From assembly GCA_963708295.1 (NCBI GenBank), contig CAVPSJ010000017.1:192001-256000 (forward strand): a stretch of DNA of 64,000 bases. The letters run 5' to 3'. The stretch comes from an uncultured delta proteobacterium (GTDB taxonomy: Bacteria > Desulfobacterota > BSN033 > UBA1163). Below are positions 28,703 to 46,890 of this stretch, piece by piece. Within the stretch, counting starts at the first letter, position 1, and each line of letters starts with the position of its first letter. The translations under genes were made by a program, and so were the position numbers. The notes beneath the pieces were generated by a model that was given only the letters and a program-made list of their open reading frames with translations, searched no databases and was not told the origin of the DNA.

Positions 28703-31700
28703 GTGGAAAATGAACTAGAAAAAATTGAAGACCAGATTCGTAAAAGTCTCGCAGACAGTATTCGCAAAAGTTTCGCAGGCAGCAATTTTGGGGATGTGAT
28801 GGTTGTCGGTGGAGGGGTCAGCGGTGTTCAAGCCTCTCTTGATCTTGCCGCTGCGGGTTTCAAGGTTTACCTGGTCGACAAGGCGCCTGCCATTGGCGGC
28901 CATATGGCCCAGCTGGACAAGACCTTTCCGACCAATGACTGCTCCATCTGAATACTCGCGCCCAAACTGGTCGAGGTCGGCCGGCATCCAAACATAGAGG
29001 TCCTGACGTATACTGAAGTGGATCGTGTCGCAGGGGAAGCGGGAGACTTTAAGGTCACCCTGATTAAAAAGCCCCGATATATTTTAGAGGACAAATGCAC
29101 GGGTTGTACAACTTGCGTCGAATACTGCCCGGTCAAATACCCTGATCGATTCAATCAGGAAATATCGAAGAATAAAGCCATCCATATCTACTTCGCTCAG
29201 GCCATTCCCTTGATCACGTATATCGATGAAAGCTGTATTTACCTGAAAGAGAAGAAATGTCGTATTTGCGAAGGCGTCTGTAAGAATCAGGCCATCGACT
29301 TCAATCAAACGGCGGAGAAGGCAGAAATCAATGTCGGGGCGATCATTCTGTCTCCCGGCCTGGAGGCATTTGATCCCAAGGTGAGGGCTGAATATCGCTA
29401 CGGAAAGTTTGAGAACGTGGTCACCAGTATGGACTATGAACGGCTGATGTGTGCCACCGGGCCATACGAAGGTGAGATCCTGCGTGCTTCCGACAAAAAG
29501 CACCCCCATAAAATAGCCTGGATTCAATGCGTCGGTTCCAGACAGGTGATTCCCGGCGGGAACAGTTATTGTTCATCGGTCTGCTGCACGTATACCCAGA
29601 AACAGGTCATTCTGACAAAGGAACATAACGCAGAGGCAGAGTGTACGATCTTCCATAACGATATTCGTTCCTACGGGAAGGATTTTGAGCGATTCTACCA
29701 AAGAACAGAGAAACTTCCCGGGGTTCGGTTTATCCGGAGCTACACCTCCATCGTCAAAGAGGACCCCAAAAGCAAGAATGTTACCATAAAGTATTCACTT
29801 CCCGAGGATGGAGTCAAAGAGGAAGAATTCGATATGGTGGTATTATCCGTTGGATTGAATCCTCCTGCCGAGGTGAAGGACCTTGCAAAAACGTTCGGCA
29901 TCGAACTCAATCATCACGATTACTGTAAAGTCAATCCTGTGAATCCGATGGAGACTACCCGGCCCGGGATCTTTGTCAGCGGAGCCTTCCAGGGTCCGAT
30001 CGATATTCCCGAGTCGGTTTTTACCGCCAGCGGAGCAGGTTCCCAATGTGCTCAACTCCTGGACTACCGGCGAGGAAAGCTGGCCAAGAAAAGGATCTAT
30101 CCGCCGGAGAGGGATGTCTCCAAAGAGGAGCCCAGGATAGGCGTCTTTGTGTGCCACTGCGGGGCGAATATCGGAAGGATCGTCAATGTTCCTTCCGCAG
30201 TTGAATATGCCAAAACCTTACCCAATGTGGTCTACGCTCAGGAACAGCTCTTTTCATGTGCTACGAATTGTGCCAAAGAAATAACAGACATGACAAAGGA
30301 AAAAGGGCTCAATCGGGTCATCGTCGCTGCCTGCTCCCCCAGGACACTTGAACCGTTATTCCGGGACACGGTTCGGGAAGCGGGACTGAATCAATATTAC
30401 TACGACATGGCCAATATTAGAGAACAGTGCTCCTGGGTCCACTCTAAAGAAAAGGAAGAAGCCACACAGAAGGCAAATGATATCATCCGGATGTCGGTGG
30501 CACGCGCTTGCCTTTTGGAGCCATTACAGGAAATTGATCTGCCTGTCAACAAGGCGGCGTTAGTGGTCGGTGGAGGTATCGCCGGCATGACGTGTGCTCT
30601 CTCCATCGCGAACCAGGGACATGAGGTTTACCTGGTGGAAAAGGAAAAAGACTTGGGGGGAACAGCAAGAAGAATCCACACCACTCTGGAAGGGCTGGAT
30701 GTTCAGGCCTATTTGCGTGATCTTGTGCGCAAGGTGAATCAGAACCCCTCCATCCATGTCTATACGGATGCAACCATCACGGGGGCTGCAGGTTATGTGG
30801 GGAATTTCGTAACCACGGTGAAGTCAGACAGAGGGGTCACAGAGATAAAACATGGCGCAGCCGTCATCGCTGTGGGTGCGGATGTGTATAAACCTGCCGA
30901 ATACCTTTACGGAGAAGACGACAGGGTCATGACCCACCTGGAGTTGGAAGAGCAGATCAACAAAGGAGACGAAAAGGTCGTTAACGCAGAAAGTCTCGTG
31001 ATGATCCAGTGCGTCGGCTGCAGAAATGAAGACAGAAATTACTGCAGCAGGATATGTTGTTACGAGTCGATCAAGAACGCATTGAAACTGAAAGAGATAA
31101 ACCCCAAGATGGATATCTACATTCTCTTCCGGGATATGAGAACGTACGGGTTTAGCGAGGATTATTACAGGGAAGCGTCAGATAAAGAGGTGAAGTTTAT
31201 CCGCTATGAACCGCAGGACAAACCAGAGGTGAAGGCGGGTGAGTCGGAGGACGGTCGGCCCGTTCTAAAGGTTACCTTGCCAGATTATATTTTAGGCATG
31301 AAGCTCGAAATCGATGCCGATATCATCTCTTTGGCTGCTGCCGTTATTCCCTCGGAGGGAAGCAAGGAAGTATCCCAGTTATTCAAGGTCCCTCTGGGCA
31401 CGGATGGTTTCTTCCAGGAAGCCCATGTCAAATTAAGACCGGTTGAGTTTGCCGCGGATGGCGTTTATCTTTGTGGGATAGCTCATTATCCCAAGCTTAT
31501 ATCGGAAGCGATTGAGCAGGCTTATGGAGCCGCAGGCCGGGTCTTAACGCTTCTCTCGCATGATACCGTTGTCGCCTCCGGCTCTGTTTGCGAGGTGGAT
31601 GAGAAAAAGTGTATCGGGTGCGGGCAGTGTATTTCCGTCTGTACGTACGGTGCCATCGAGTTCCGTGAGACACGACAGGGCAAAAAGGCGGTCGTCAATC

Positions 31701-31822
31701 CTGTTCTCTGTAAAGGAGATGGTCTCTGTAACGCGAAGTGTCCCACAGGGGCGATCCGGCTCAAGCACTTTACCGACGAAGAGCTGCTCGCCCAAATTGA
31801 CGCGGCAGGGGAAGGCGACTAA
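28703..31822 (+). CDS. bamE: HdrA-like flavo/FeS selenoprotein (1039 aa, Sec83 at UGA 28949-28951)
   Basis: ORFs 28703..28951 and 29018..31822 are in frame; readthrough gives [18 protein letters not shown] at a conserved HdrA Cys; hairpin at 28967-28984. Confidence 0.92.
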
Positions 31823-31825
31823 GAA

Positions 31826-31882
31826 AGGTTGAGGTTAAGGTTCAGGGTTAGAACTTCTCAACCTTAGCCTTAACCTGGACCT
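31826..31882. repeat. Inverted hexamer array
   Basis: (AGGTTR)n then (AACCTY)n; related copy at 36192-36248. Confidence 0.65.
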
Positions 31883-31954
31883 ACTGGCTAAACTGGCGTC
31901 TTCACCCTAGCCTTTACCGATGAACTTATTTTCTAACAAAGGAGGTGAGAAAGC

Positions 31955-32806
31955 ATGAGTACGGGACTTAAATTTAAACCAAGAATATTAGGCTTCGTAT
32001 GCCATTGGTGAGCATACGGCGCGGGTGACATGGCTGGAGTTTCCAGACTGCAATATACAACTGAAACGAGGCTGATACGCGTCATGTGTTCCGGGAGAGT
32101 CGACCTGGAATTCGTACTCCGGGCTTTCTCAAATGGAATGGATGGGGTGTTGATCGGTGGTTGCCGCCTTAATGAATGTAATTATATTACCCATGGAAAT
32201 TATCATGCGCTCACCATGGCGCTTCTCTGTAAAAGGATAATGGAACACATCGGCCTGAACCCGGAAAGGTTGCGGATCGAATTTATGTCTTCCGCTGAAG
32301 GAAACCGGTTTGCCGACGTGATGGGTGAGTTTGGCAACCAGGTGAAGGAGTTAGGACCCCTCGGCAAAGGTAAAGGTGAAGGAATTGAACGAAATGCATT
32401 AAAGTCCAAACTTGCAGAAATGACAAAGCTGGTCCCATACATCAAGCTGGTGAAAAATGAGAAGCTGGCATCCCGTCTTACGAACCCGGAAGAATATGAC
32501 AAACTTTTCACCAAAGACGAAATAGACAAGTTATTCAGCGAAATCATCTCGTACTATATCGACCCGGAAAAGTGCCAGGCCTGCATGACTTGCGCGAAGC
32601 GATGCCCGGTCGAGGCGATACTCAGTGCCAAGAACCAGGTCCACGTCATTGATCAGGAGAAATGCATCAAATGCGGAACCTGCTTTGAAGTTTGCCCTCC
32701 TAAATTTGGTGCGGTGACGAAGATTTCCGGCGGGCCTGTTCCGCCTCCTCTTCCTGAAGATAAAAGAACGATCGTCAGAAAGAGCAAAGAAAAGAAAGAG
32801 AGTTGA
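31955..32806 (+). CDS. bamF: MvhD-like selenoprotein fused to a 2x[4Fe-4S] domain (283 aa, Sec19 at UGA 32009-32011)
   Basis: AAGGAGGTG RBS; MSTGLKFKPRILGFVCHW-U-AYGAGDMAG is in frame with ORF 32030; VMCSGRVD; C-terminal ferredoxin motifs. Confidence 0.92.
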
Positions 32807-32844
32807 TACGCTTCAGCAGTTTGAGTGAAAGCAACCAGAACACA

Positions 32845-32923
32845 TAAATCCCCCTCAATCCCCCTTTACAAAAAGGGGAGGAACATCTCCTCCCTTTGGC
32901 AAAGGGAGGTCGGGAGGGATTTT
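32845..32923. repeat. Intergenic palindromic element
   Basis: AAATCCC...CCCCTTT-aca-AAAAGGGG...CCTCCCTTT-ggc-AAAGGGAGG...GGGATTT. Confidence 0.7.
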
Positions 32924-32980
32924 ATAAATAGGTTTTCTAAGCACTTTTTCAACGGTACTAATCACCTGTAGGAGGTCATC

Positions 32981-35095
32981 GTGTCTCCAGTTAGCGCAAC
33001 CTATTGGGGCATACCGGGCTATGTCCTTTTCTGGGTCTTGTTCGTCATCGCCGTCGCCTTATTTGCGCAGAGGGCTTATTTCCTCTTTCGCCTGATGTGT
33101 CTGGGGAAGCCGGAGAACCGCTTCGACAGAATAGGGCAGAGACTCAGGACGATGCTGGTCGAGGTTGTCCCTCAGTGGTGCAGCCTGAAAACCGTCACGG
33201 GAAAGGACCTGTCCGGGATCGGACATGCTCTGTTATTCTGGGGCTTCAGCCTGTTTCTCATCAGTTACATCATCTTTATTGGCTTGGCCGGGGGTTTTGG
33301 ACTTTCCCATGTGATTGAGGGGACCGCCTTTGAGATGATTTATTTGTCCATTCTGGATATTGCAGCGTTATGGGTCATCATCGTTTTAATCTGGGCAGGC
33401 ATCAGGCGTTATATCGTCAGGCCGGAAAGACTGCAGATCAGCGCCGAGGCAGCCATCATCCTGATCGTGGTCTTCAGCCTTATGGTGCTCCATTTTTGCA
33501 TCGAGGGCTTCGGCTTCGCAGGCTCCGGGAATATCCCAGACTGGCCCCCTGTGGGGGCGGCGTTCGCTCGCTTCCTATCCGGCACCGGTATCTCAAGAAG
33601 CACGCTGATGGGGGTTTCCCAGGCGGCTTGGTGGCTTCACTACATGGTGATCCTCGGCTTTATGGTCTATATCCCACGCTCAAAGCACCTGCACGTTCTC
33701 GCCTCCCTCTTCAATGCCTTCTTCAAACCACTGGGACCTAAAGTGGTGCTTGAGCCCATCCCTGTTGAAGCGGAGACCTTTGGCGCATCGAAGATTCAGG
33801 ACTTTACCTGGAAGGACTTGCTCGACCTTTATGCCTGTGCCGTCTGCGGTCGGTGCCATGCTAATTGTCCCGCCCACCTGAGCGGCAAGACCCTCTCGCC
33901 TCGAGAGGTCATTCATAACCTGAAAGAACATTTACTGGAGGCGGGCCCTGAATTGCTCGCCAGTCAGCTTGCCGCCAAGGCGAAGGTGTTATCGAAAAGC
34001 CCGGGGGAAAACCCGGCCGAGACCCCGGCTGAGACCCAACCCGAAGCTCAAGGTGAGACCCAACCCAAGACCCAACCTAAGGAAATGATCGGTGATGTGG
34101 TCACTGAGGCAGAGATCTGGGCCTGCACCACCTGTGGCGCCTGCCAGGAGGTATGCCCGGTCAATATAGAACACATACGTAAGATCATCGAACTCAGGCG
34201 CAATCTGGTGATGGCGCAGAGCAAGATGCCGGAAAGCGCCCAGCTGATGCTCAGAAATATGCAGCAAAGAGGACACCCATGGGCCGGAATCCAGTCAATG
34301 AGGTTGAGGGGCGACTGGACAACCGATCAGGAGCTCAAGGTATTGGCTGAAGGTGACAACGCGGATACCCTCTTCTGGGTGGGTTGCACCGGGGCTCTTG
34401 TTGAGCGCAACGTCAAAGCGACTCTTTCCATGACGAGGGTGCTGAAAGCGGCGGGTGTCGATTTCGCGGTATTAGGCGATGCCGAGACTTGCTGCGGTGA
34501 CCCGGCACGAAGGGCAGGGTATGAGTTCCAGTTTCAGATCATGGCAGAGCAAAATATAGAAATCTTCAAGAGCCATAACATTAAAGAGATTGTGACCTCC
34601 TGTCCCCACTGCTATAATACCCTTAAGCATGAGTATCCTAAGTACGGCGGCGAGTTCAAGGTGGTTCACTATACCCAGCTCATTGCCGATTTCATCGGGC
34701 AGGGAAAATTGAAGCTTACCAACGAGCTGAATTCCAAACTCACCTATCATGACCCCTGCTATTTAGGCCGATATAACGGCGTCTATCAGGAGCCGCGCCG
34801 GATATTGCAGGCGATCCCCAAGACGAAGCTTGCGGAAATGGAACGCTCGCGAAACACGGGTTTTTGCTGCGGCGGCGGGGGGGGGCTCATGTGGATAGAA
34901 GAGCAGCCGGGTACAACAAAGATTAATCAAGTGCGTCTTGAGGATGCTCTCAAGACCGGGGCCGAGACGGTCGTGACCGCCTGCCCTTATTGTCTGCAGA
35001 TGTTCGAGGACAGCATCGACCATAAAGGTGTGAAGGATTCGTTGAAGGCAAGAGACCTTGTTGAACTCGTTGAAGAAGCCATAAAACAATCTTAA
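32981..35095 (+). CDS. Membrane-bound FeS oxidoreductase (FadF/HdrF/ETF:menaquinone oxidoreductase type)
   Basis: N-terminal TM domain with conserved His (GHALLFWGF, WWLH, SKHLH), two CxxCxxCxxxCP, two CCG domains; next to etfBA. Confidence 0.88.
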   Translation: MSPVSATYWGIPGYVLFWVLFVIAVALFAQRAYFLFRLMCLGKPENRFDRIGQRLRTMLVEVVPQWCSLKTVTGKDLSGIGHALLFWGFSLFLISYIIFIGLAGGFGLSHVIEGTAFEMIYLSILDIAALWVIIVLIWAGIRRYIVRPERLQISAEAAIILIVVFSLMVLHFCIEGFGFAGSGNIPDWPPVGAAFARFLSGTGISRSTLMGVSQAAWWLHYMVILGFMVYIPRSKHLHVLASLFNAFFKPLGPKVVLEPIPVEAETFGASKIQDFTWKDLLDLYACAVCGRCHANCPAHLSGKTLSPREVIHNLKEHLLEAGPELLASQLAAKAKVLSKSPGENPAETPAETQPEAQGETQPKTQPKEMIGDVVTEAEIWACTTCGACQEVCPVNIEHIRKIIELRRNLVMAQSKMPESAQLMLRNMQQRGHPWAGIQSMRLRGDWTTDQELKVLAEGDNADTLFWVGCTGALVERNVKATLSMTRVLKAAGVDFAVLGDAETCCGDPARRAGYEFQFQIMAEQNIEIFKSHNIKEIVTSCPHCYNTLKHEYPKYGGEFKVVHYTQLIADFIGQGKLKLTNELNSKLTYHDPCYLGRYNGVYQEPRRILQAIPKTKLAEMERSRNTGFCCGGGGGLMWIEEQPGTTKINQVRLEDALKTGAETVVTACPYCLQMFEDSIDHKGVKDSLKARDLVELVEEAIKQS

Positions 35096-37837: not shown

Positions 37838-38280
37838 GGTCCTCTCCTTTCTCAGGGGCCAAACCCCTGAAGTTATCCTGATAAAAACGTAATCCTTCTT
37901 TTCCCAGTGTCAAGGAACGGAAACCCCCCGATTGCCGAACCCAGGCGAAACAAAGTTCGTCCGAGACCTTATCACGTATCTCGATTACCCTCCTCTCATC
38001 TAAGGGTTAATATCCCTTTCAAATCGCAATTTCTTCGCAGGTGCGTATAGTGGCAAGTATATGTTCAGTTTCTGGATACTGAAATCCTCAAGGAAAAGGT
38101 TTGCCTCAATGGTGCAGATTTCACCCCGAAATCGATTATGCTGACAATTCTTGTAAATGGTAAAGTTCATCCTTACGCAGTCCCAAAAATGCTTGACAAA
38201 AGGATTCTGTTTTTATACTGGATTAGATAGTTTTAAAGGAGGGAAGGGTTTTTATTGAAAAATTGAATGAGGAGGGACTT

Positions 38281-38784
38281 ATGGGAAGGGTCGAAGGAAT
38301 CATCAAATCTGAAATTGTACGTTTGGCGAGAAGGGAGATAAGGAAGATTTCTGTTCCCTTAGCCCGTGATGTCTGGTTTCTGAAAAGTGTGGTCTCACAG
38401 CTTCGCAAAGCCGTTTTGACGCTTCAGCGGATCACAGCTAGCCAGCAAAAAGAGTTGGAAAAAGGTAAGACTCCAATCGAGGCAACCCCCGAAGAGGTGA
38501 AGGAGTCCCGTTTCTCTCCCCGGCTAATCAGAAGCCTTCGTAGGCATTTGGGCATTACCCAGAAAGAACTGGCGATTCTTACAGGGGTCACCGTTGGGGC
38601 AGCCCATCAATGGGAGATCGGACGGTTTAAGCCAAGCATGAAGAAGAAGGCGGTGATGGTGGCGCTTCGAAAGCTAAGCCGCCGCGAGGTTCGAAAGCTC
38701 CTCGAAGAAAAAGGGACCCAGATGGTGGAAAAGAAGGTTCCTTCGCGCGGGAGGAAACGTACAAAAAAGGTCCGTGGGAAATAG
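38281..38784 (+). CDS. XRE-type HTH protein with N-terminal coiled coil
   Basis: KSEIVRLARRE; LRRHLGITQKELAILTGVTVGAAHQWE. Confidence 0.85.
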   Translation: MGRVEGIIKSEIVRLARREIRKISVPLARDVWFLKSVVSQLRKAVLTLQRITASQQKELEKGKTPIEATPEEVKESRFSPRLIRSLRRHLGITQKELAILTGVTVGAAHQWEIGRFKPSMKKKAVMVALRKLSRREVRKLLEEKGTQMVEKKVPSRGRKRTKKVRGK

Positions 38785-39218: not shown

Positions 39219-39535
39219 ACCCTCAAACCAGACACACCCCATCCCAACTTCTTTTGAAATTTCTAACGAGGGATACCCCTTGTTAATTCGTGTTATCTCA
39301 AAAAGCTTGATATCATCTTTTTCTTCTATCTCGTTGATCAGTCCACTGCATTTAAAAATAATGGCTGCAATCTCCATTATTATATATTTTCAAAAAAAAC
39401 AAGCAATGGACAAAGATATCTTCCTCAATTTTTGGAAAAGGTGTATATTACTACCACAAATGAACAACGGATTCAGGGTTCAAAAAGGCCTTTTGAAAGG
39501 CTGTGACAAGGATGACTAAAAACGAGGTGATGAAA

Positions 39536-39961
39536 ATGAAGAATTTAGTTCATAGGATTGATATCTTATTGGTGTTGATTCTAGGGTTTTTGGTAGTGAC
39601 ATTAGCGGTTACTATCTTTTCTGTGTGGGCTGGAGAGATTCCGCGCATCACACCGGAGGGATTGAAGAAAATGATCGACAGCAAGGCGGATATCGTGGTG
39701 GTGGATAATCAACCCAAAACTGAATACAACAAGGCGCATATCCCTGGAGCAGTTAACTTGCCTTGGGCGATGGAAATAGAGGGACCCGGGGACCTTCCTC
39801 GCGATAAGCCGCTCATTCTTTATTGCGGTTGTGCCCATGAGGAGGATTCTGGTTCCGTGGCCGATCAGCTTATAGAAAATTTCGGGTATGAGCAGATCAA
39901 ACTTCTTAAAGGTGGTTTGTCGCAATGGCAAAAGTTAGGTTATCCCGTCGAAAAAAAATAG
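39536..39961 (+). CDS. Exported rhodanese-like protein 1
   Basis: Signal peptide, HIPGAVNLP, active loop YCGCAHEEDS, LKGGLSQW. Confidence 0.9.
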   Translation: MKNLVHRIDILLVLILGFLVVTLAVTIFSVWAGEIPRITPEGLKKMIDSKADIVVVDNQPKTEYNKAHIPGAVNLPWAMEIEGPGDLPRDKPLILYCGCAHEEDSGSVADQLIENFGYEQIKLLKGGLSQWQKLGYPVEKK

Positions 39962-39982
39962 TGAAGAAAGGAATCTAGAGAG

Positions 39983-40624
39983 ATGAGAGAAAAGAAAAGG
40001 ATATGGCTGGTCTTTTTAATGGTTTTGCTGGTAATGTTTTCAGTGGAGGGTATCTTTATTTATGCGGGAGCTGGCGAGAGCAAGAAACTTCCCAAGGTTG
40101 GGCCCGTGAAGATGAATCCACATCCATCCAGCCTGGAAGGGAAGACAGTTGTGTTACGCTGGAATGGGAAATACAATGGGGATAAATACCTCAGCCGAGT
40201 AGGAGAGTTGATGAGTCAACAGATAAAGACCGTAAAGATCATTAAGATGTGGGAGATAGACAAAAGCACAGCCGCCATTTCCAAGAATGCGGAAGTGAGC
40301 GAGCAGGTAGCTGCGAGCATTGCTAAACTGAAGCCGGATTTGGTCATTGCTGCCCAGGCTGACTGAGGGATCTGTACGTCATGGCTGGTAGTTGACCAGC
40401 TCAATTTGGAAAAGAAGGGGATTCCTACCGTAACCGTGGTAACCACGGCTTTTGAAGAGATGGTTAGGTCGTTGATGAAAGATCAGGGAGTATCAGAGAT
40501 GGCTTTGGTGGTTGAGGAGCACCCCATTGCGGGTCATAATCTGGAGGGGATCCGGAAAAAAGTGGACGCGGCTTTCCCTGTCATTCTTAAGGCAGCAACA
40601 CAATGGCAACCAGAGAAGAAATGA
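39983..40624 (+). CDS. Exported UGSC-family selenoprotein, stand-alone (213 aa, U128-G-I-C, UGA 40364-40366)
   Basis: ORFs 39983..40366 and 40406..40624 are in frame with an open linker (AD-U-GICTSWLVVDQLNLEKKGIPTV); SECIS-like hairpin 40383-40401; signal peptide. Confidence 0.85.
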
Positions 40625-40645
40625 TGGGAAGAGGAGGCGGGATCG

Positions 40646-41194
40646 ATGGATGAGATAGGAGCCAGCGGACAGATGGCAATTTTAAAAGAGAGATCAGGTT
40701 GGTTGAAGAAGGTTGCGGCCAACCGGTATGTGATCCTGGTTCTTCGTTTGATCTTGGCAGCATTTTTCCTCACCTCATCTTACGGTAAGTTGGTAGATAT
40801 TGAGCGCTATTCGGTAGATGCGGTATATAACTTTGGTATCTTGCCGATGGTGCTAGCTCGTCCTTTTGGATTAGTGATGCCGTTCATCGAACTGCTGTGC
40901 GGCCTTGGGTTACTCTTTGGGGTCTTAACCCGATTGTCGGCGCTTGGAATTGCTCTGATGAGCCTATCTTTTTTTATCGCCAAGGCGATCGTCCTTTCTC
41001 AGGGCCGCAGCATCGAATGCGGCTGTTTTGGGGCCGTCATTGATACGTTAGCCTCGGTGACGATCTTCATGGATATCCCCATGATGGTCTTGGCCTTGGT
41101 CATTATGTTTTCAGCTCCTGCAGCTCGGCACTGGTTGGCGATTGGAAAGTTGTTACCCCTGTCATGGAGAGATAAGCTTCATCTAATCTGGTGA
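40646..41194 (+). CDS. MauE/DoxX family redox-associated membrane protein
   Basis: LRLILA, PFIELLCG, SIECGCFG. Confidence 0.88.
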   Translation: MDEIGASGQMAILKERSGWLKKVAANRYVILVLRLILAAFFLTSSYGKLVDIERYSVDAVYNFGILPMVLARPFGLVMPFIELLCGLGLLFGVLTRLSALGIALMSLSFFIAKAIVLSQGRSIECGCFGAVIDTLASVTIFMDIPMMVLALVIMFSAPAARHWLAIGKLLPLSWRDKLHLIW

Positions 41195-41397
41195 GAAATG
41201 CTTGAAGTAGCGTATAAGAAATATCCTAGGACGGAGTTCGTCAAAACTCCCTTTCCCTTTTTGTATTAAGGAATTTAGGATGATTTCTTTGCGTGACAAG
41301 GATGAATAAAAGGAAGGAGGTGGTACTTACTTAAAGGCATAACTAAGTAGCAAAGGAGGGTGACGTTCTAAAACCTCTAAAAAGAAGGGAGAAACCT

Positions 41398-43302
41398 ATG
41401 GAAAAGGGAATAAGTTGGTCAATCATTGCAATGTTTTTGGTAGCAAACCTTTGGGCTGTTGGAGCGGTAGTAGCGCCTCCATTAGCAAACGGGGCAACAG
41501 CTGCGGGCTCAGTAACATTAACGGTGCTTAACCCCAGGGGCGAGAGCGAGCCTCCACAAAACCTGGGAATTACAGGTCGTGTTACGGATCTAGCCGGCAA
41601 GAAGATCGGATTGTATTGGCTTGGAAAACCCGATGGGGACGTCTTTTTTGCCAGAATTCAAAAACTGCTGGAGGAGAAATTTCCTACAGCAAAGATCCTG
41701 CAGTATACCGGTGGATTCGACATCGGAGACCCTTTAGCAGCGAAAATGGCAAAAGAAGTGGATACATTCGTATATGGCGTAGGGGACTGAGGGTCGTGTA
41801 CAAATCTCGGCGTGTCCGGGACAATTAGGATAGAAAAACTTGGTAAGCCTGGGGTCTTTCTTGCTGCGGAAGGTTTTGATCACGATGCAAAAAGAGCAAC
41901 TGTTGATAACGGAATGACTCCGCTACGTGTTGTAGTGGTACCTGGTTATGTATGGGGCCAACCTACAAACCAAAAACCACCTCTTGCAGATGCAAGTATC
42001 AACAAGATTATCGATGCATTAACCCGTCCTTTAACAGCAGAAGAAGTCAAGCCAAAACCTATAGCTAAAGAGAAGCTCAAGCCAATTCAGGTCACTGCGG
42101 ACAGTTATGAGGCAGCGGTTGAGAAATTCAACCAGTTGTTCCTTAATAATCATTGGGGCGATGGGTTATCTTTAGTCCCCCCCACAAAGAAGGCTGTTGA
42201 TTGGATGCTTACAGGTACGAGCCTCCCTTTTAACAAAGTAATAGGCAAGGTTGACCCTAAAGGCGGGAGTGCCACTGTAGAAAAGATTGCAATTAATGCA
42301 GTGATGGCGGGGGCAAAACCGGAGTACTTGCCAGTGATCATTGCTGCAATGGAAGGCTTCACGGATCCGAATTTCGATCTCCGTCATCCGGTGCTTTCGA
42401 TGGGATCCTTCAGTTTTGCCATAGTCGTGACCGGGCCTATTGTAGAAGAACTTAACATAAATTCCGGGGCGGGTTTCTTTGGTCACGGATGGCGAGCGAA
42501 TGCCACCATTGGCCGCGCCCTGAGATTATGCATGATTAATTTGGGCCACACGTTTCCGCAAGTAAATGATATGGCGAGAATCGGCCGACAATCAGCTTAC
42601 ACCTTTTATGTTATGGGCGAAAATAAGAAATCCCCCTGGCCACCCTATCAAACGACCCAAGGTTACAAACCAGAGGATAGTTGTGTGACAGTGTCTACAG
42701 TCGGGAGTCACAATACCGGGGCGGGGAGAAATATACCCCATAACGGTAATACCGCCGACTCAGCATTAGAAGCCGTTGTTGAAACCATCCTTAGTCGTCG
42801 TAGCATGCAGTGGGAGGGCTATAAACGCGGCACGGCTAACCTTGTTGCTCTTCCGTTGAAATATCTATTCTTGGTTACTCCAGAAATGGCTGACCTGTTT
42901 TACCGTCGAGGCTTTAAGGACCAGAAAAGTCTAAAAGACTATATTTATGAAGCTACGAGTGTGCCTTACGAGAAGCTCAGTGCAGAAGAGAAACGTGGCA
43001 TAAAAGACTGGATCGACACAAGTATTGCAGGTGAGGGAATCATGGGACTAAGGCTTCCTCCAGACCGTATCTCCTTCTTCCAAGAAGCCTTTAAACCAGG
43101 AGGAAAGGTTCCACTTATAACGACGCCGGAGGACATTCATATTATGGTGGTAGGTTATGGCGCGGGTGGAGGAGTATTAGGAGGAATGCATGAACTATCA
43201 TTCGGGAGGCCACTTTACAAGCCAACATCGCATCAAACGAGGCCGATAAAGGGAGCTACACTGACTAAAGCTGGTCGTGAGAAGGCTAAACCTTCCTATT
43301 AG
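41398..43302 (+). CDS. Exported UGSC selenoprotein fused to a large uncharacterised domain (634 aa, U131-G-S-C, UGA 41788-41790)
   Basis: ORFs 41398..41790 and 41812..43302 are in frame; GVGD-U-GSCTNLGVSG; hairpin 41805-41821; signal peptide. Confidence 0.88.
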
Positions 43303-43353
43303 CCAACTTTGGACTTCTGCACAGTACCATATAATCACTCATGGAAATATCCT

Positions 43354-43384
43354 AAAGGGAGCTTACCAAAGCTCCCTTTTTTTT
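43354..43384 (+). terminator. Intrinsic terminator
   Basis: AAAGGGAGCTT-acca-AAGCTCCC followed by T8. Confidence 0.85.
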
Positions 43385-43746
43385 GATTCGCGAAATTTCC
43401 TATCTTTTGCAAAAGTGCAGATTTCTGCTATAGACCTTGCGTTTTTCAAAGCCCAAAAACTTATGATTTGAAGATCAGATAAAAACATCTCTCCATTTTT
43501 TTCACTAGGATGTATTGGCAAGATATGTTCAGCTCTAAGATCCCATACAGCTGAGACCTGGGACGGTAGAGTACTTTCTGAAGTCCTTAAGGGAAGAATC
43601 CAGACCGTCATCCAAGATTACAAGTGACAATCCCCAAAAAGATAATTTCTAGAACCTCTTTTTTATACTTTTTCCCGATTGACTTAAGAAACACGTTGTG
43701 ATAGAAGCATCGCTAGCGATTGTAAATTGAAAGAGGTGAGGAGCTC

Positions 43747-44169
43747 ATAGAGAATTTAGGTCGGTGGAGACTAATCTTATCCGTATCGATGTCGGTGTTT
43801 TTACTCTCGATGTTGGCAGTTTCTCTCTTTACTGTATCAGCTGAAGAGATCCAACGCATCACGCCAGAGGACTTGAAGAAATTGATCGAGAGCAAGGCTG
43901 ACATTGTGATTGTTGATAACCAGCCCAAAGAAGTCTACGATACGGGGCATATCCTTACAGCAGTTAACTTTCCGTGGGCGGTAAAGATTAGCGGGCCTGT
44001 CAATCTGCCTGGAAATAAGTTGCTCATTTTCTATTGTGCCTGTGAGCATGAGGAGGACTCTACGGATGTGGCAGATCAGCTTATGAAGGAGTTTGGGTAC
44101 ACCAACATTAAGGTTCTTCAGGGTGGTTGGTTACGGTGGATAGAGTTGGGCTATCCCGTTGAGAAATAG
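43747..44169 (+). CDS. Exported rhodanese-like protein 2 (ATA at the homologous start; first ATG at 43789)
   Basis: Paralog of 39536..39961; YCACEHEEDS; GAGGAG RBS before ATA 43747. Confidence 0.85.
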   Translation: MENLGRWRLILSVSMSVFLLSMLAVSLFTVSAEEIQRITPEDLKKLIESKADIVIVDNQPKEVYDTGHILTAVNFPWAVKISGPVNLPGNKLLIFYCACEHEEDSTDVADQLMKEFGYTNIKVLQGGWLRWIELGYPVEK

Positions 44170-44324
44170 TAGGTGGACAAAAGGATTGAAAGAAATGCGA
44201 GGAAAGAAAGGAATGTTGGCTTGACTAAAAGGAGGTGATGTTTGCTGAAAAGCATAACTGGATAGTAATCACTTTCAGGAATAACTGGCCAGGATGGAAG
44301 ATCTGGTAAAGAAAGGAGAAAGCT

Positions 44325-46163
44325 ATGAAAAAACGAATAACTTGGTTGCTAATGGGGGTGTCATTGTTCGTGACCGTTTGTTGGATTGGCCCGGTTGCGG
44401 CTCAGGTATCATTAGAGTTGCTCAACCCTCGGGGTGAGATTGTGCCCCCCCTAACCTTGGGACCATCACCTCGTCTTCCGGATTTAGCAGGAAAGAAGAT
44501 TGGATTATATTGGAATGGGAAAGTGGGTACGAACGTGTTCTTCGATACGGTTGAAGAAATGCTAAAGGAGAAATTTCCCACCATAAAGGTCTCGCGGTAT
44601 GTTGGTGCATTCGACCCCGGGGACGCTCTGGCAGCGAAAATAGCAAGAGAAGTGGATACAGTGATAAATGGTGTGGGCGACTGAGGGTCGTGCACATTTG
44701 CCGGCGTGTCCGGCACAATAAGATTAGAAAAACTGGGTATACCGACGCTTTTCCTTTTCGCTCCTGGATTTGAACACGACGCAGAGCAAGCGGCTATAGA
44801 CAACGGAATGCCTACGATTCGCAGATTACTGATACCTGGATTTGTATGGGGCCAACCTGGCGAAAATAAAATTCCTCTTGCCAAGGCATCTTTTGCCGAC
44901 ATGATCAATGCACTAACCCGTCCCTTAACGGCAGAGGAGGCCAAGCCAAAGCAAAAAGAAAAAGAGGTCTACCCGTCAGTAAACATTACTGCGGCAAGTT
45001 ATGAGGAAGCTGTTGAGAAATTCAACCAGGTGTTCCTCGAGAATCGCTGGGGCGATGGATTACCCTTAGTCCCTCCCACAAAACAGGCTGTTAAGTGGAT
45101 GCTGACAGGAACGAGTCGTTCTCCTGGCGAAGTAATAGGCAAGGTTCCTACTCAAAATGGGATCGCCACTATTGAAAAGATTGCTATTAATGCGGTGATG
45201 GCAGGAGCTAAGCCAGAGTACTTACCGATGATAATTGCGGCAATGGAAGGCCTTACGGACAAAGCATACGATCTCCTTCATCCGCAAGCTTCAATGGGTC
45301 AATTTAATTTAGCAGTAATTGCCAGCGGGCCTATTGGAGAAGAAATTAACATGAATTCCTCGACAGGTTTCTTGGGCCATGGATGGCGAACTAATAATAC
45401 CATTGGCCGCGCCGTGAGGCTGTCCTTGATTAACCTCGGCCACATGTGGCCGGGAGTGAACGATATGGCCAGAGTCGGTCGACAGTCGGCGCATACCCTC
45501 TATACTTTCGCCGAAAATCAAAAGTTCAGCCCTTGGCCACCTTATCATGTGATCCAAGGTTATAAACCAGAAGATAGTTGTATGACAGTCTCCACAATCG
45601 GGGGTTACGGAGCATATGCTGTAACAACCCTTGGATCAGTGGGCATGACAGCAGAAATGCAATTAAATGAGGTGATTAAAAGCATACTTGATCGCCGCGA
45701 GGCGGTACTTGCTCAGTATAGGCCCGGGGTTACTTCCCCTTACACTTTGCCGTGTAAATATATATTTCTGATTCCGCCGGAATTAGCTCAGAGTTACCAA
45801 AAACAAGGCTTTACTCGGGAAAGTTTACAGGAGTACATCTATAAAAAAACATCCGTGCCATACGAAGATCTTAGTTCAAAGGAGATACAGAGCATACAAG
45901 GGAAGATTAGGATAAGTATTGCAGGTGAGGGATTGGCTTCAGACAGGATTCCTCCAGATCGTATCCCCGTATTTCAAGAAGCTCTTAAACCAGGAGGAAA
46001 GGTTCCAATTGTAGTAACGCCGGAGGACATTCAACTCTTCGTAGTCGGCTATCCAGTAGGCGGTCAAATAGTTCAAATGTCATATCACAGAGCGCCGTAC
46101 AAATGGAGCTCGCATCAGACGAAACTGATACGTGGAGCTACTCTGACTAAGGCCGGTCGTTAG
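44325..46163 (+). CDS. Exported UGSC selenoprotein fused to a large uncharacterised domain, paralog 2 (612 aa, U120-G-S-C, UGA 44682-44684)
   Basis: ORFs 44325..44684 and 44706..46163 are in frame; GVGD-U-GSCTFAGVSG; hairpin 44699-44715; signal peptide ending VAA-Q. Confidence 0.88.
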
Positions 46164-46214: not shown

Positions 46215-46243
46215 AAAAGGGAGCTCACCAAGAGCTCCCTTTT
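46215..46243 (+). terminator. Intrinsic terminator (intron target site)
   Basis: AAAAGGGAGCTC-accaa-GAGCTCCCTTTT. Confidence 0.85.
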
Positions 46244-46250
46244 CTTCTTC

Positions 46251-46890
46251 GTGCGCCCGGCAGGGCGCACATACTTGGAGGTGCAAGTCCTTTACGGACC
46301 CTGGTGACGGGAACCGTTAGCTGAACCGCAAGGGCTATCATCGTGAGATGGGGTCTGGAGGAAGTGGTAGGCAAATCCCCGGCCTGAGGAACACGAAGCG
46401 CATAAGAAGCAGCCATCCCTGGGCGAGGAGGCGAAAAGATCTGAAGCCCGATAGTCATCCGGAAGGGGTGGAAGTATATGCGACAGGTAGATGGGGAAAA
46501 AGTGAGTGTGCAATACCCGGGGAGATCTGCTCATCTGCCAGTGGGCTAACATCGTTAGGAGACGGTGTGATGGGTGTGCAGGAGTCAGCAGAGGGCATAG
46601 TAGTCACATCGCACAGTGGCGAAGGCCCGAACGTGGAAGGAAGGGAGAGTACTGAGCCTCGATGGGCGAGGGAGATGCAGACAAGAGGGCTGAAATGCCT
46701 GAGGACTCCTGGAAAGTAGCGGGCGGAACTCGCGAGAATAGGGAGAGGGAGCATCAAATATCCACGGCGGCAGAGAAAAAAAATACTCAACCGGTGTAAA
46801 CTTCACTTAACCTTCCACGAACCGCCGTATGCCGACCGGCACGTACGGTGGTGTGGGAGGGTGCGGGGGCAACCCCGCCCCCTACCCGAT
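46251..46890 (+). mobile_element. ORF-less class IIC group II intron (640 nt)
   Basis: 5' GTGCGCCCGG; domain V GAACCGCCGTATGCCGACCGGCACGTACGGTGGTGTG with CGC triad; domain VI ending CCTACCCGAT; directly after a terminator; no RT ORF. Confidence 0.9.

Follow-up and report, generated by a model that had tools for sequence, protein, structure and literature searches.

Since 2007-2008, surveys of aquatic metagenomes have counted UGSC proteins with the most abundant of their predicted selenoproteins, and the accessible parts of the relevant papers assign them no function (PMC1976440, PMC2398784); a 2026 review, in the portion available to us, still describes the family as "largely uncharacterized" (PMC13188914). 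Members that contain cysteine (Cys) in place of selenocysteine (Sec) are rare, the excerpted counts of Zhang and Gladyshev (PLoS Genet 2008, PMC2398784) being 255 Sec versus 21 Cys forms, and the same excerpt mentions a 'UGSC/Unknown_1' fusion. The available sections of the review further give U-x-x-C-x-x-C as the motif of GrdB, name PrdB as a GrdB homologue that performs reductive cleavage, and assign this chemistry to the Sec module of glycine reductase and D-proline reductase (PMC13188914). Here we describe a cluster of six genes at 39.5-46.2 kb of a 64,000-nucleotide stretch of DNA (the window, by which we mean this whole stretch) from an uncultured delta proteobacterium of the Desulfobacterota (assembly GCA_963708295.1, contig CAVPSJ010000017.1, positions 192,001 to 256,000), which encodes three predicted exported UGSC selenoproteins, two rhodaneses and a MauE/DoxX-family membrane protein.

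Profile comparisons indicate that the UGSC domain is a Sec module of the GrdB/PrdB type placed beside a different partner, an uncharacterised C-terminal domain (CTD). We see about an even chance that the cluster is an extracytoplasmic GrdB-like selenol/thiol reductase module made of four protein kinds. The link to GrdB, the presentation of UGSC and CTD as one unit, and the exported branch with its own set of MauE, rhodanese and short UGSC protein all appear to be new: the available portions of the literature on UGSC selenoproteins, on MauE with rhodanese and on TsoB connect UGSC with neither export, MauE, rhodanese nor GrdB. The fusion of UGSC to the CTD may already be on record as 'UGSC/Unknown_1', and the UGSC family, the LYCAU-type rhodanese selenoproteins and MauE are known by name.

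The six genes all lie on the + strand, in the order Rhd1, short UGSC, MauE, long A, Rhd2 and long B, and positions are counted from the first letter of the window. An original prediction made from the letters of the DNA had claimed six co-oriented genes, three of them with one in-frame TGA at the same motif site, and this is confirmed. The genome as a whole holds three matches to UGSC, three to MauE and ten to the LYCAU rhodanese family NF041203 (Rhd1 and Rhd2 included). All three UGSC genes, one MauE gene and two of the NF041203 matches fall within 6.6 kb; since such matches are few genome-wide and six of them stand together, the clustering goes beyond chance. The features are as follows, with SECIS standing for selenocysteine insertion sequence.

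39536..39961, + strand, Rhd1, predicted exported single-domain rhodanese with the C-x-C loop LYCGCAHEEDS (Pfam Rhodanese 60.5 bits)
39983..40627, + strand, short UGSC selenoprotein, predicted exported, 213 residues, U128 in AD-U-GIC, without the CTD (Pfam UGSC 117.7 bits)
40364..40366, + strand, Sec codon TGA of the short UGSC gene, in a column that is TGA in homologues
40384..40400, + strand, SECIS-like hairpin of the short UGSC gene, GCUGGU-AGUUG-ACCAGC
40646..41194, + strand, MauE/DoxX-family membrane protein with E-CGC-FG and about four hydrophobic helices (Pfam MauE 78 bits)
41398..43302, + strand, long selenoprotein A, predicted exported, 634 residues, U131 in GD-U-GSC (Pfam UGSC 85.6 bits)
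41788..41790, + strand, Sec codon TGA of long A
41806..41820, + strand, SECIS-like hairpin of long A, CUCGG-CGUGU-CCGGG
43354..43379, + strand, terminator-like hairpin with T-run 3' of long A, 11 pairs, probable end of the first transcription unit
43789..44169, + strand, Rhd2, predicted exported C-x-C rhodanese with FYCACEHEEDS (Pfam Rhodanese 49.2 bits)
44325..46163, + strand, long selenoprotein B, paralogue of long A, predicted exported, 612 residues, U120 in GD-U-GSC (Pfam UGSC 97.8 bits)
44682..44684, + strand, Sec codon TGA of long B
44700..44714, + strand, SECIS-like hairpin of long B, GCCGG-CGUGU-CCGGC
46215..46243, + strand, terminator-like hairpin 3' of long B, 12 pairs

Within the limits of what sequence analysis can show, we regard Sec decoding of the three UGSC genes as established. 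Each gene is open only with its single TGA read through, and the expectation that the host decodes Sec is borne out by the genome, which contains selB (353 bits), selA (625 bits), two selD genes and tRNA-Sec. Both selD genes (G000:C17:66608-67531 and C4:371872-372792) carry an in-frame TGA of their own. Homologues were collected from 40 regions of 37 other UGSC-positive genomes, from two further loci (L001 and L002) and from the window, 55 hits in total, and 53 of these have TGA in the Sec column. The two exceptions are a true Cys codon in L069, the Cys-containing homologue that was to be sought, and a Thr codon in a protein that has also lost the second Cys. Among metagenomic UGSC hits that cover the motif, an in-frame TGA is present in 102 of 102 (80 loci).

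The hairpins predicted after each TGA are present, 17-20 nt 3' of it, with 5-6 bp and G-U in the loop. On their own, those of the window do not stand out from shuffles in folding stability (z -0.61, +0.44 and +0.67), and their weakness would suit a reading in which the proteins are not selenoproteins at all, the TGAs being true stops in split genes or pseudogenes whose downstream parts are made from GTG or TTG starts. As a group the hairpins tell against it: the majority hairpin across 52 distinct homologues has 77.2% of cells paired versus 63.1% in shuffles, and covariation amounts to 53 double-change cells versus 23.8 +/- 3.5, a value reached in 0 of 500 shuffles and far above all slid controls. 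The two hairpin types of the window differ slightly in register, yet compensatory changes are seen among close relatives. In an orthologue (L071:6398-6451), UUG/CAA replaces the CUG/CAG pairing of the short UGSC hairpin by two synonymous changes, and the first pair is C-G in long A and G-C in long B. Database gene calls would also suit true stops, most homologues being entered as 430-496-residue pieces that start just past the TGA, much as the original prediction expected gene callers to fragment such genes. These fragment entries arise because the called starts fall after the Sec codon and the G-S-C-T stretch, and G-S-C-T, encoded between the TGA and the called start, is the most conserved motif of the family. 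Given also the retention of TGA in homologues with a Cys codon in its place in L069, the complete Sec machinery of the genome, and the alignment of the motif with the Sec of GrdB, we regard the reading without Sec as extremely improbable.

A separate candidate was that the short UGSC protein is fused to MauE through a second Sec, the TGA stop of its gene in the window being in frame with mauE. This was ruled out: orthologues end in TAA (19), TGA (13) or TAG (11), mostly in another frame, and because the stops vary in this way the stop of the short UGSC gene is real.

Membership in the UGSC family, as originally assigned, holds for all three proteins by Pfam, where their matches to UGSC (PF24696) exceed the cut-off of 25 bits severalfold; the short protein also passes the NCBIfam model NF041046, "UGSC family (seleno)protein", at 125.9 bits against a cut-off of 125. 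They have the U-G-S-C motif and Sec site of the family, the short one reading UGIC. They differ from most UGSC relatives in their predicted signal peptides and, in two of the three, in the fusion to the CTD.

A GRDB-like selenoprotein elsewhere in the genome prompted a comparison of the pattern that follows the Sec. This 300-residue protein (L163:1399-2298; G000:C4, ~798.4-799.3 kb) matches PF07355 at 40.3 bits, has an in-frame TGA in T-P-A-U-P-F-C-C and is probably another selenoprotein of the GrdB superfamily; the genome has no GrdE-type gene. When an alignment of 32 UGSC sequences was compared by hhalign with one of five full-length GrdB genes of the phylum, with TGA read through, the match had a probability of 96.2% and an E-value of 2.7e-9 over 88 columns, covering the last ~90 residues of GrdB. 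Sec falls on Sec and Cys on Cys, E-x-E-x-x-G-I-P on its counterpart, and I-P-H-P-x-G-N on I-P-H-P-L-G-N, so that the homologous stretch runs from the beta-strand before the Sec to the domain end (U-G-[ST]-C-T ... E-x-E-x-x-G-I-P ... I-P-H-P-x-G-N). A control comparison of the same UGSC alignment with a rhodanese alignment gave 0.67%; against the single GRDB-like sequence the register was unchanged and significance was none. Some cytoplasmic UGSC proteins even retain the complete U-x-x-C-x-x-C of GrdB. The post-Sec part of the short UGSC protein found only a chance match in the PDB (E 1.2).

What the window proteins share with GrdB and PrdB is the Sec-bearing C-terminal module with its U-x-x-C and nothing more, and they are not members of that family. 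The N-terminal GRDB domain (PF07355) is absent from all three, and the third Cys of GrdB is replaced by Trp or another residue. Their partner is the CTD, unrelated to the pyruvoyl proproteins GrdE and PrdA, and they are predicted to be exported. GrdE/PrdA (PF09338) was not found in the genome, and grdA, grdC and grdD genes are absent. Because the UGSC domain matches the Sec end of GrdB, whereas the CTD matches neither the N-terminus of GrdB nor GrdE, we interpret UGSC as a GrdB-type Sec module with another partner, and this homology points to a Sec/Cys centre of reductase type.

The CTD comprises ~420 residues. In long A, a predicted signal peptide is followed by UGSC at ~42-209 and by the CTD at ~215-634; in long B the CTD likewise runs from ~215 to the end, and the two CTDs are 59% identical. 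Its tie to UGSC was assessed in 42 loci outside the window, namely 40 regions from 37 of the 47 UGSC-positive genomes among 401 sampled in the phylum, plus L001 and L002; a search of genome contigs with the single protein P0002 gave two loci only. UGSC and CTD are both present in all 42, either fused in that order or as adjacent same-strand genes in either order, mostly a few hundred bases apart (~1.3 kb in L069). When neighbouring open reading frames (ORFs) of these loci were clustered and opposite-strand shadow-ORF clusters (n=2) set aside, the next-largest cluster, ATP-binding cassette (ABC) ATPase-like, occurred in nine. This co-occurrence shows UGSC and CTD to be functionally coupled, as one unit. 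The CTD is also found on its own, for example in 350-370-residue proteins in L008, L010 and L022, so it is the broader family and UGSC its usual redox partner.

That family is large: among 8000 scored candidates of a 90%-clustered database, more than 5046 proteins match at E <= 0.001, and at 50% identity there are 3940 representatives at E <= 0.001, of which 634 reach E <= 1e-30. A lenient Pfam scan of 84 CTD proteins found UGSC in 48, the catalytic chain of ferredoxin:thioredoxin reductase (FTR), which is a disulfide-reducing module, in two, and nothing else. In these two (P0154, of 494 residues, and one other) the FTR catalytic beta chain replaces UGSC beside the CTD; in NCBIfam the CTD-FTR protein matches the 'FtrB family double-selenoprotein' weakly. 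Conservation in the CTD is complete or nearly so at D, G, P, T, N, R, E and W residues, which do not form a Cys or His cluster; its invariant residues include E194 and the motifs D-G-L-P-x-x-P-P-T, N-A-V-M-A-G and G-R-A-x-R-L. The residue after N-A-V-M-A-G is Cys in 30 matches and Ala in 12, and does not track export cleanly. Since the gene contexts of relatives are heterogeneous, the CTD is probably a diverse enzyme family: tripartite ATP-independent periplasmic (TRAP), tripartite tricarboxylate (TTT) and ABC transporters and coenzyme A (CoA)-transferases were recognised by eye from N-terminal ORF sequences, and one solute-binding protein, esterases, a tannase, a GH43 enzyme and molybdoenzymes by Pfam. 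Stand-alone CTD paralogues with twin-arginine motifs (RREFF[KR], RRQFFK) lie by the module at L071:8614-9984, L089:9516-10328, L146:3190-4002 and L154:3319-4131, which would imply folding, or possibly cofactor binding, before twin-arginine (Tat) export; other stand-alone paralogues near the module have secretory (Sec-type) signals.

Export was judged by hydropathy and charge alone, as the maximum hydropathy over 11 residues with a threshold of >= 2.0. All three UGSC proteins and both rhodaneses begin with a K/R-rich start followed by a hydrophobic stretch (for Rhd2, MSVFLLSMLAVSLFTVSA), and they are predicted to be exported; the signal peptides claimed for these five proteins are upheld to the extent that their N-termini look exported by these two measures. 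The N-terminal extensions of the window's UGSC proteins are 45-59 residues long (45 in the short one) and reach maxima of 3.38, 2.32 and 2.44, versus less than 1.7 in short-leader relatives. Across the 55 UGSC hits the N-termini are bimodal. Most have ~20 hydrophilic residues before the domain and no hydrophobic stretch, and 19, the window's three among them, are of exported type, with 42-76 residues that begin with basic residues and contain a hydrophobic core; a twentieth was assigned to this class by eye. By their leaders, then, the window proteins belong to an exported minority, and most UGSC relatives look cytoplasmic. Of the nine rhodaneses that adjoin UGSC, eight show a hydrophobic signal-like stretch, and the ninth (L078) shows one only from an upstream GTG start.

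The rhodanese motifs are as originally read, YCGCAHEEDS in Rhd1 and YCACEHEEDS in Rhd2, and both proteins exceed the Pfam Rhodanese (PF00581) cut-off of 22.2 bits; Rhd1 has an alternative earlier start, a GTG at 39503. In the nine rhodaneses beside UGSC, Y-C is invariant and Y-C-x-C is kept in 9/9. The best NCBIfam match is NF041203, rhodanese_LYCAU, at 84.6 bits for Rhd1 and 78.8 for Rhd2, under its cut-off of 115. In alignment, the second of the two C-x-C cysteines falls on the Sec (C-A-U) of three true LYCAU selenoproteins of this genome (G000:C19:103824-104192, C16:50746-51111 and C11:311711-312082), which score 168-188 bits, have one TGA each and all possess signal-peptide-like N-termini. 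The LYCAU type corresponds to the 'form 3, CxU' rhodanese in the available part of the review (PMC13188914). Because their scores stay under the cut-off and Cys stands for Sec, Rhd1 and Rhd2 are classed by sequence as relatives, not members, of the LYCAU family, a separate subfamily with an acidic HEEDS loop that is tied to UGSC.

MauE, with its claimed CGC motif, is supported by a Pfam MauE (PF07291) score of 78 bits against a cut-off of 27, and by 39.7 bits for DoxX. Cys85, Cys125 and Cys127 (the last two in CGC) are invariant in eight orthologues. By hydropathy and the positive-inside rule, both termini would be cytoplasmic, with CGC in the second periplasmic loop and the third Cys in helix 2. 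In characterised systems MauE and MauD serve in the maturation of methylamine dehydrogenase. The thiol oxidoreductase complex DoxX-SseA-SodA of M. tuberculosis joins a DoxX membrane protein to a rhodanese, according to the accessible part of PMC7907618 (citing Nambi et al. 2015). Both likewise pair a small polytopic MauE/DoxX protein with a soluble thiol-redox or rhodanese partner, and they differ from the present cluster, which has no mau genes, no SodA and no two-domain SseA-type rhodanese, and in which the partners are selenoproteins. The TsoA/TsoB/TsoC system, compared by name and architecture from the excerpts available, similarly combines a rhodanese domain, a membrane module of thiol-disulfide type and several selenoproteins. 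TsoB (NF045694, resembling a rhodanese/DsbD fusion) matches the two rhodaneses weakly (27.7 and 28.7 bits against a cut-off of 805), and no TsoA or TsoC motifs occur in the cluster.

Conservation of the neighbourhood was tested with MauE as anchor, so UGSC played no part in the choice of loci. MauE-like proteins occur in 135 of the 401 sampled genomes, but identity to that of the window reaches 68% or more in just seven copies, from five genomes; the next best has 38%, so that this subfamily is sharply set off from other MauE proteins of the phylum. One genome (G009) has two such copies in the window's order of rhodanese, short UGSC, MauE and UGSC-CTD; in G321 MauE is followed by UGSC-CTD, and in G264 by a C-x-C rhodanese at the contig end. 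A 10-kb island in G047 holds one MauE gene together with four UGSC genes, three C-x-C rhodaneses and one double rhodanese. When metagenomes were scanned with the MauE alignment, 80 loci were obtained (69-96% identity), mutually related and not independent samples, of which 74 contain UGSC, 45 a rhodanese and 42 the CTD, and all 302 domain matches lie on the strand of MauE. Seventeen of the loci extend 1.5 kb or more to either side of MauE, and for these the numbers are 17, 15 and 16, respectively. Two gene orders recur, the next gene after the rhodanese encodes UGSC in 37 of the 45 rhodanese loci, and no fifth gene family recurs in the 80. The four-part set is kept together over MauE divergence to ~70% and a change of gene order, and the neighbourhood of UGSC, rhodanese and MauE is strongly conserved, as predicted.

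The closest UGSC domains to the short UGSC protein, at 47-56% identity, are those of a second lineage of exported long proteins (U-G-[AS]-C-T-S-W-L-V-V-D-Q); identity to the rest is at most 32%. In this sister lineage, at L072, a secreted protein of AhpC/TSA-Redoxin type (by Pfam) and a Tat-exported molybdopterin oxidoreductase replace MauE and rhodanese; L011-L014 share this pattern as judged solely by similar C-terminal ORF ends. A redoxin partner fits the need for a periplasmic thiol reductant. Molybdopterin oxidoreductases stand by exported UGSC-CTD genes at L072:8050-11538, L077:11941-13968 and L041:9316-11499, two of them with Tat signals and one accompanied by genes for an FeS subunit and a TorD-like chaperone. 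A further exported lineage of UGSC-CTD (L046:2866-8341) is flanked by a tannase/feruloyl esterase, a GH43 glycosidase and an alpha/beta hydrolase, a context that hints at extracellular plant-polymer or aromatic-ester metabolism.

These contexts bear on the possibility that the cluster serves periplasmic sulfur, selenium or metalloid trafficking, with rhodaneses carrying persulfide or perselenide, Sec centres acting on inorganic S, Se, As or Te, and MauE linking to the membrane redox pool. Molybdopterin oxidoreductases of Psr/Phs/Ttr/Arr type, two of them with Tat signals, adjoin exported UGSC-CTD genes in L072, L077 and L041; each island has between two and five genes for rhodaneses, one of which, in L077, is a secreted double rhodanese; and the DoxX/MauE superfamily includes DoxD, a thiosulfate:quinone oxidoreductase subunit to which MauE has a weak match (21.3 bits). 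The periplasmic rhodanese Sud of Wolinella, which feeds polysulfide reductase, is a precedent. Against such trafficking, genes of sulfur, selenium or arsenic metabolism do not recur in either set of loci (80 anchored on MauE, 42 on UGSC), the acidic HEEDS loop with C-x-C (C-x-U in relatives) looks like a redox pair and not like the classical anion-binding persulfide loop, most UGSC-CTD pairs are cytoplasmic and stand by TRAP, TTT or ABC transporters and CoA-transferases (mostly recognised by eye), and the GrdB homology points to reductase chemistry on an organic substrate. We therefore consider this explanation unlikely. The sulfur-, selenium- or metalloid-containing substrate of the original prediction is still hypothetical, as are the persulfide-carrying role of the rhodaneses and that of MauE as electron link.

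The reading we prefer is the GrdB-like reductase module. Long A and long B would be its working enzymes, each with a Sec-type signal peptide, a UGSC domain and a CTD. The CTD would bind and activate the substrate, which, if GrdB and PrdB are a guide, the selenolate of UGSC would attack. Resolution of the adduct by the adjacent Cys would leave a selenenyl-sulfide, and this bond would need to be re-reduced. The Sec modules of glycine reductase and D-proline reductase likewise end as an oxidised Se-S species that requires re-reduction. We know of no thioredoxin/NADPH system in the periplasm, and for this reason a dedicated relay would recycle the centre, formed by the short UGSC protein, the C-x-C rhodaneses and MauE with its periplasm-facing C-G-C. 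The analysis itself shows Sec decoding, the domain architecture, the GrdB homology, the tie of UGSC to the CTD and the conserved four-part neighbourhood; export, the function of each part, the direction towards reduction and all contacts between the proteins are inferred. A more specific version, which we offer tentatively and hold to be rather doubtful, is that the cluster represents the first self-contained periplasmic selenoenzyme system of glycine/proline-reductase type, with a GrdB-like centre exported by the Sec translocon and fused to a large catalytic domain, the short UGSC protein as 'selenoredoxin', C-x-C rhodaneses, and MauE wiring it to the membrane or cytoplasmic redox pool.

Several results, besides the individually weak hairpins, weigh against this reading. 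Long A and long B stay under the NF041046 cut-off of 125 (72.2 and 81 bits). The CTD matches no Pfam or NCBIfam family in the window proteins or in ten distant homologues, and no PDB entry by single sequence or by profile. Two identities were tried for it and rejected, that of a (permuted) GrdB N-terminal domain (1.6% in hhalign against full-length GrdB) and that of a GrdE/PrdA-like proprotein (0.13% against GrdE). With no family, PDB or profile match and no tie to GrdB or GrdE, its role as substrate-activating domain is pure inference on our part. The full-length homologue P0124 has Ser for Sec, no motif Cys and no signal peptide, so the CTD can occur without a redox centre. MauE also occurs outside the module: two paralogues, one of 69% identity in this genome and one of 68% in the sister genome G049, have no UGSC, CTD or C-x-C rhodanese within ~8 kb. 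Six of the 80 metagenomic loci are without UGSC, two of them with more than 5 kb of flank, and other exported UGSC-CTD lineages (L001, L002, L041, L045-L049 and L072) show no MauE or rhodanese with our narrow profiles, built from the window proteins. Finally, a quinone-linked MauE would favour oxidation of selenols or thiols, and the precedent of MauE may itself be oxidative. On the CTD, a query of the ESM Atlas through the homologue P0062 returned its own family only. The paralogous MauE of this genome (L075:8001-8504; G000:C17:275896-276399) lies ~20 kb beyond the window and has the same three Cys.

Membership in the MauE family also invites an oxidative or maturation system, in which MauE would act as a thiol-to-quinone oxidase like DsbB or VKOR, with the short UGSC protein and the rhodaneses as DsbA-like carriers, and the task of UGSC-CTD would be oxidation, cross-linking or isomerisation of a thiol, peptide or protein in the periplasm, comparable to the service of MauE and MauD to methylamine dehydrogenase. 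Transfer from selenol or thiol to menaquinone is thermodynamically downhill; the three invariant Cys of MauE, one in a helix and two in a periplasmic loop, recall DsbB, and a weak match (25.1 bits, under cut-off) leads to HvfX of ribosomally synthesised and post-translationally modified peptide (RiPP) maturation. No substrate protein or precursor peptide recurs beside the module, however, and the GrdB homology, the CTD-FTR fusion and the TlpA-like redoxin partner of the sister lineage all suggest reduction, which makes such a system quite improbable in our view. The reductive direction of the GrdB-like module is accordingly favoured, because of the GrdB homology, the CTD proteins in which an FTR chain stands for UGSC, and the redoxin that partners the sister lineage.

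As to the organisation of the locus, strong terminator-like hairpins after long A and long B suggest that rhd1-ugsS-mauE-ugsL1 and rhd2-ugsL2 are transcribed as separate units. A diverged tandem duplication, with direct repeats spaced 2894 nt, comprises long A and long B along with the regions upstream of them. Two short repeats were noted at 41293-41353 and 44229-44268: the spacer between MauE and long A contains a 30-nt copy, 80% identical, of the start region of Rhd1, and a 40-nt element 5' of both long genes is 75% conserved. They may be left over from an ancestral rhd-long unit or represent a common 5' leader. Upstream of the cluster lies a bam-type cluster (HdrA/MvhD/HdrD/ETF-like), with a glyoxalase gene, a helix-turn-helix (HTH) gene and a small opposite-strand gene in between. 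Within it, at 28703-35095 on the + strand, a 1039-residue HdrA-like gene, open only via one TGA read-through, is followed by an MvhD/FlpD-like gene (a read-through ORF with TGAs), an HdrD-like CCG-domain gene and electron-transfer flavoprotein (ETF) genes. Proteins that share the N-terminal sequence of the HTH gene product (MqsA/HTH_3-like, 38263-38784, + strand) adjoin the module in 3 of the 80 metagenomic loci, so this gene may encode a regulator. Rfam reports no family inside the six-gene cluster. Directly 3' of the long B terminator, at 46337-46890 on the + strand, it reports group II intron D1-D4 (127.9 and 61.6 bits) and an intron 3' domain (44.9 bits) over ~560 nt, overlapped by a 123-residue ORF only, and this may be an ORF-less group II intron.

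Beyond the original prediction, this work adds the CTD as constant partner of UGSC, the GrdB homology of its Sec module, and the observation that most UGSC relatives are cytoplasmic. The Sec-module homology to the GrdB and PrdB reductases makes the question of UGSC function testable. Because UGSC always travels with the CTD, the two can be treated as one enzyme, and the small partner set of the exported branch (C-x-C rhodanese, short UGSC protein and MauE) can be reconstituted. The cluster is also a likely example of selenoproteins exported via the general secretion route. For annotation it carries a warning, since thousands of database entries of the UGSC-CTD family are fragments that start past the Sec codon. 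If the more specific version of our reading is true, the CTD family, with its 3940 clusters at 50% identity, would constitute a major class of Sec- or thiol-dependent reductases with cytoplasmic and periplasmic branches.

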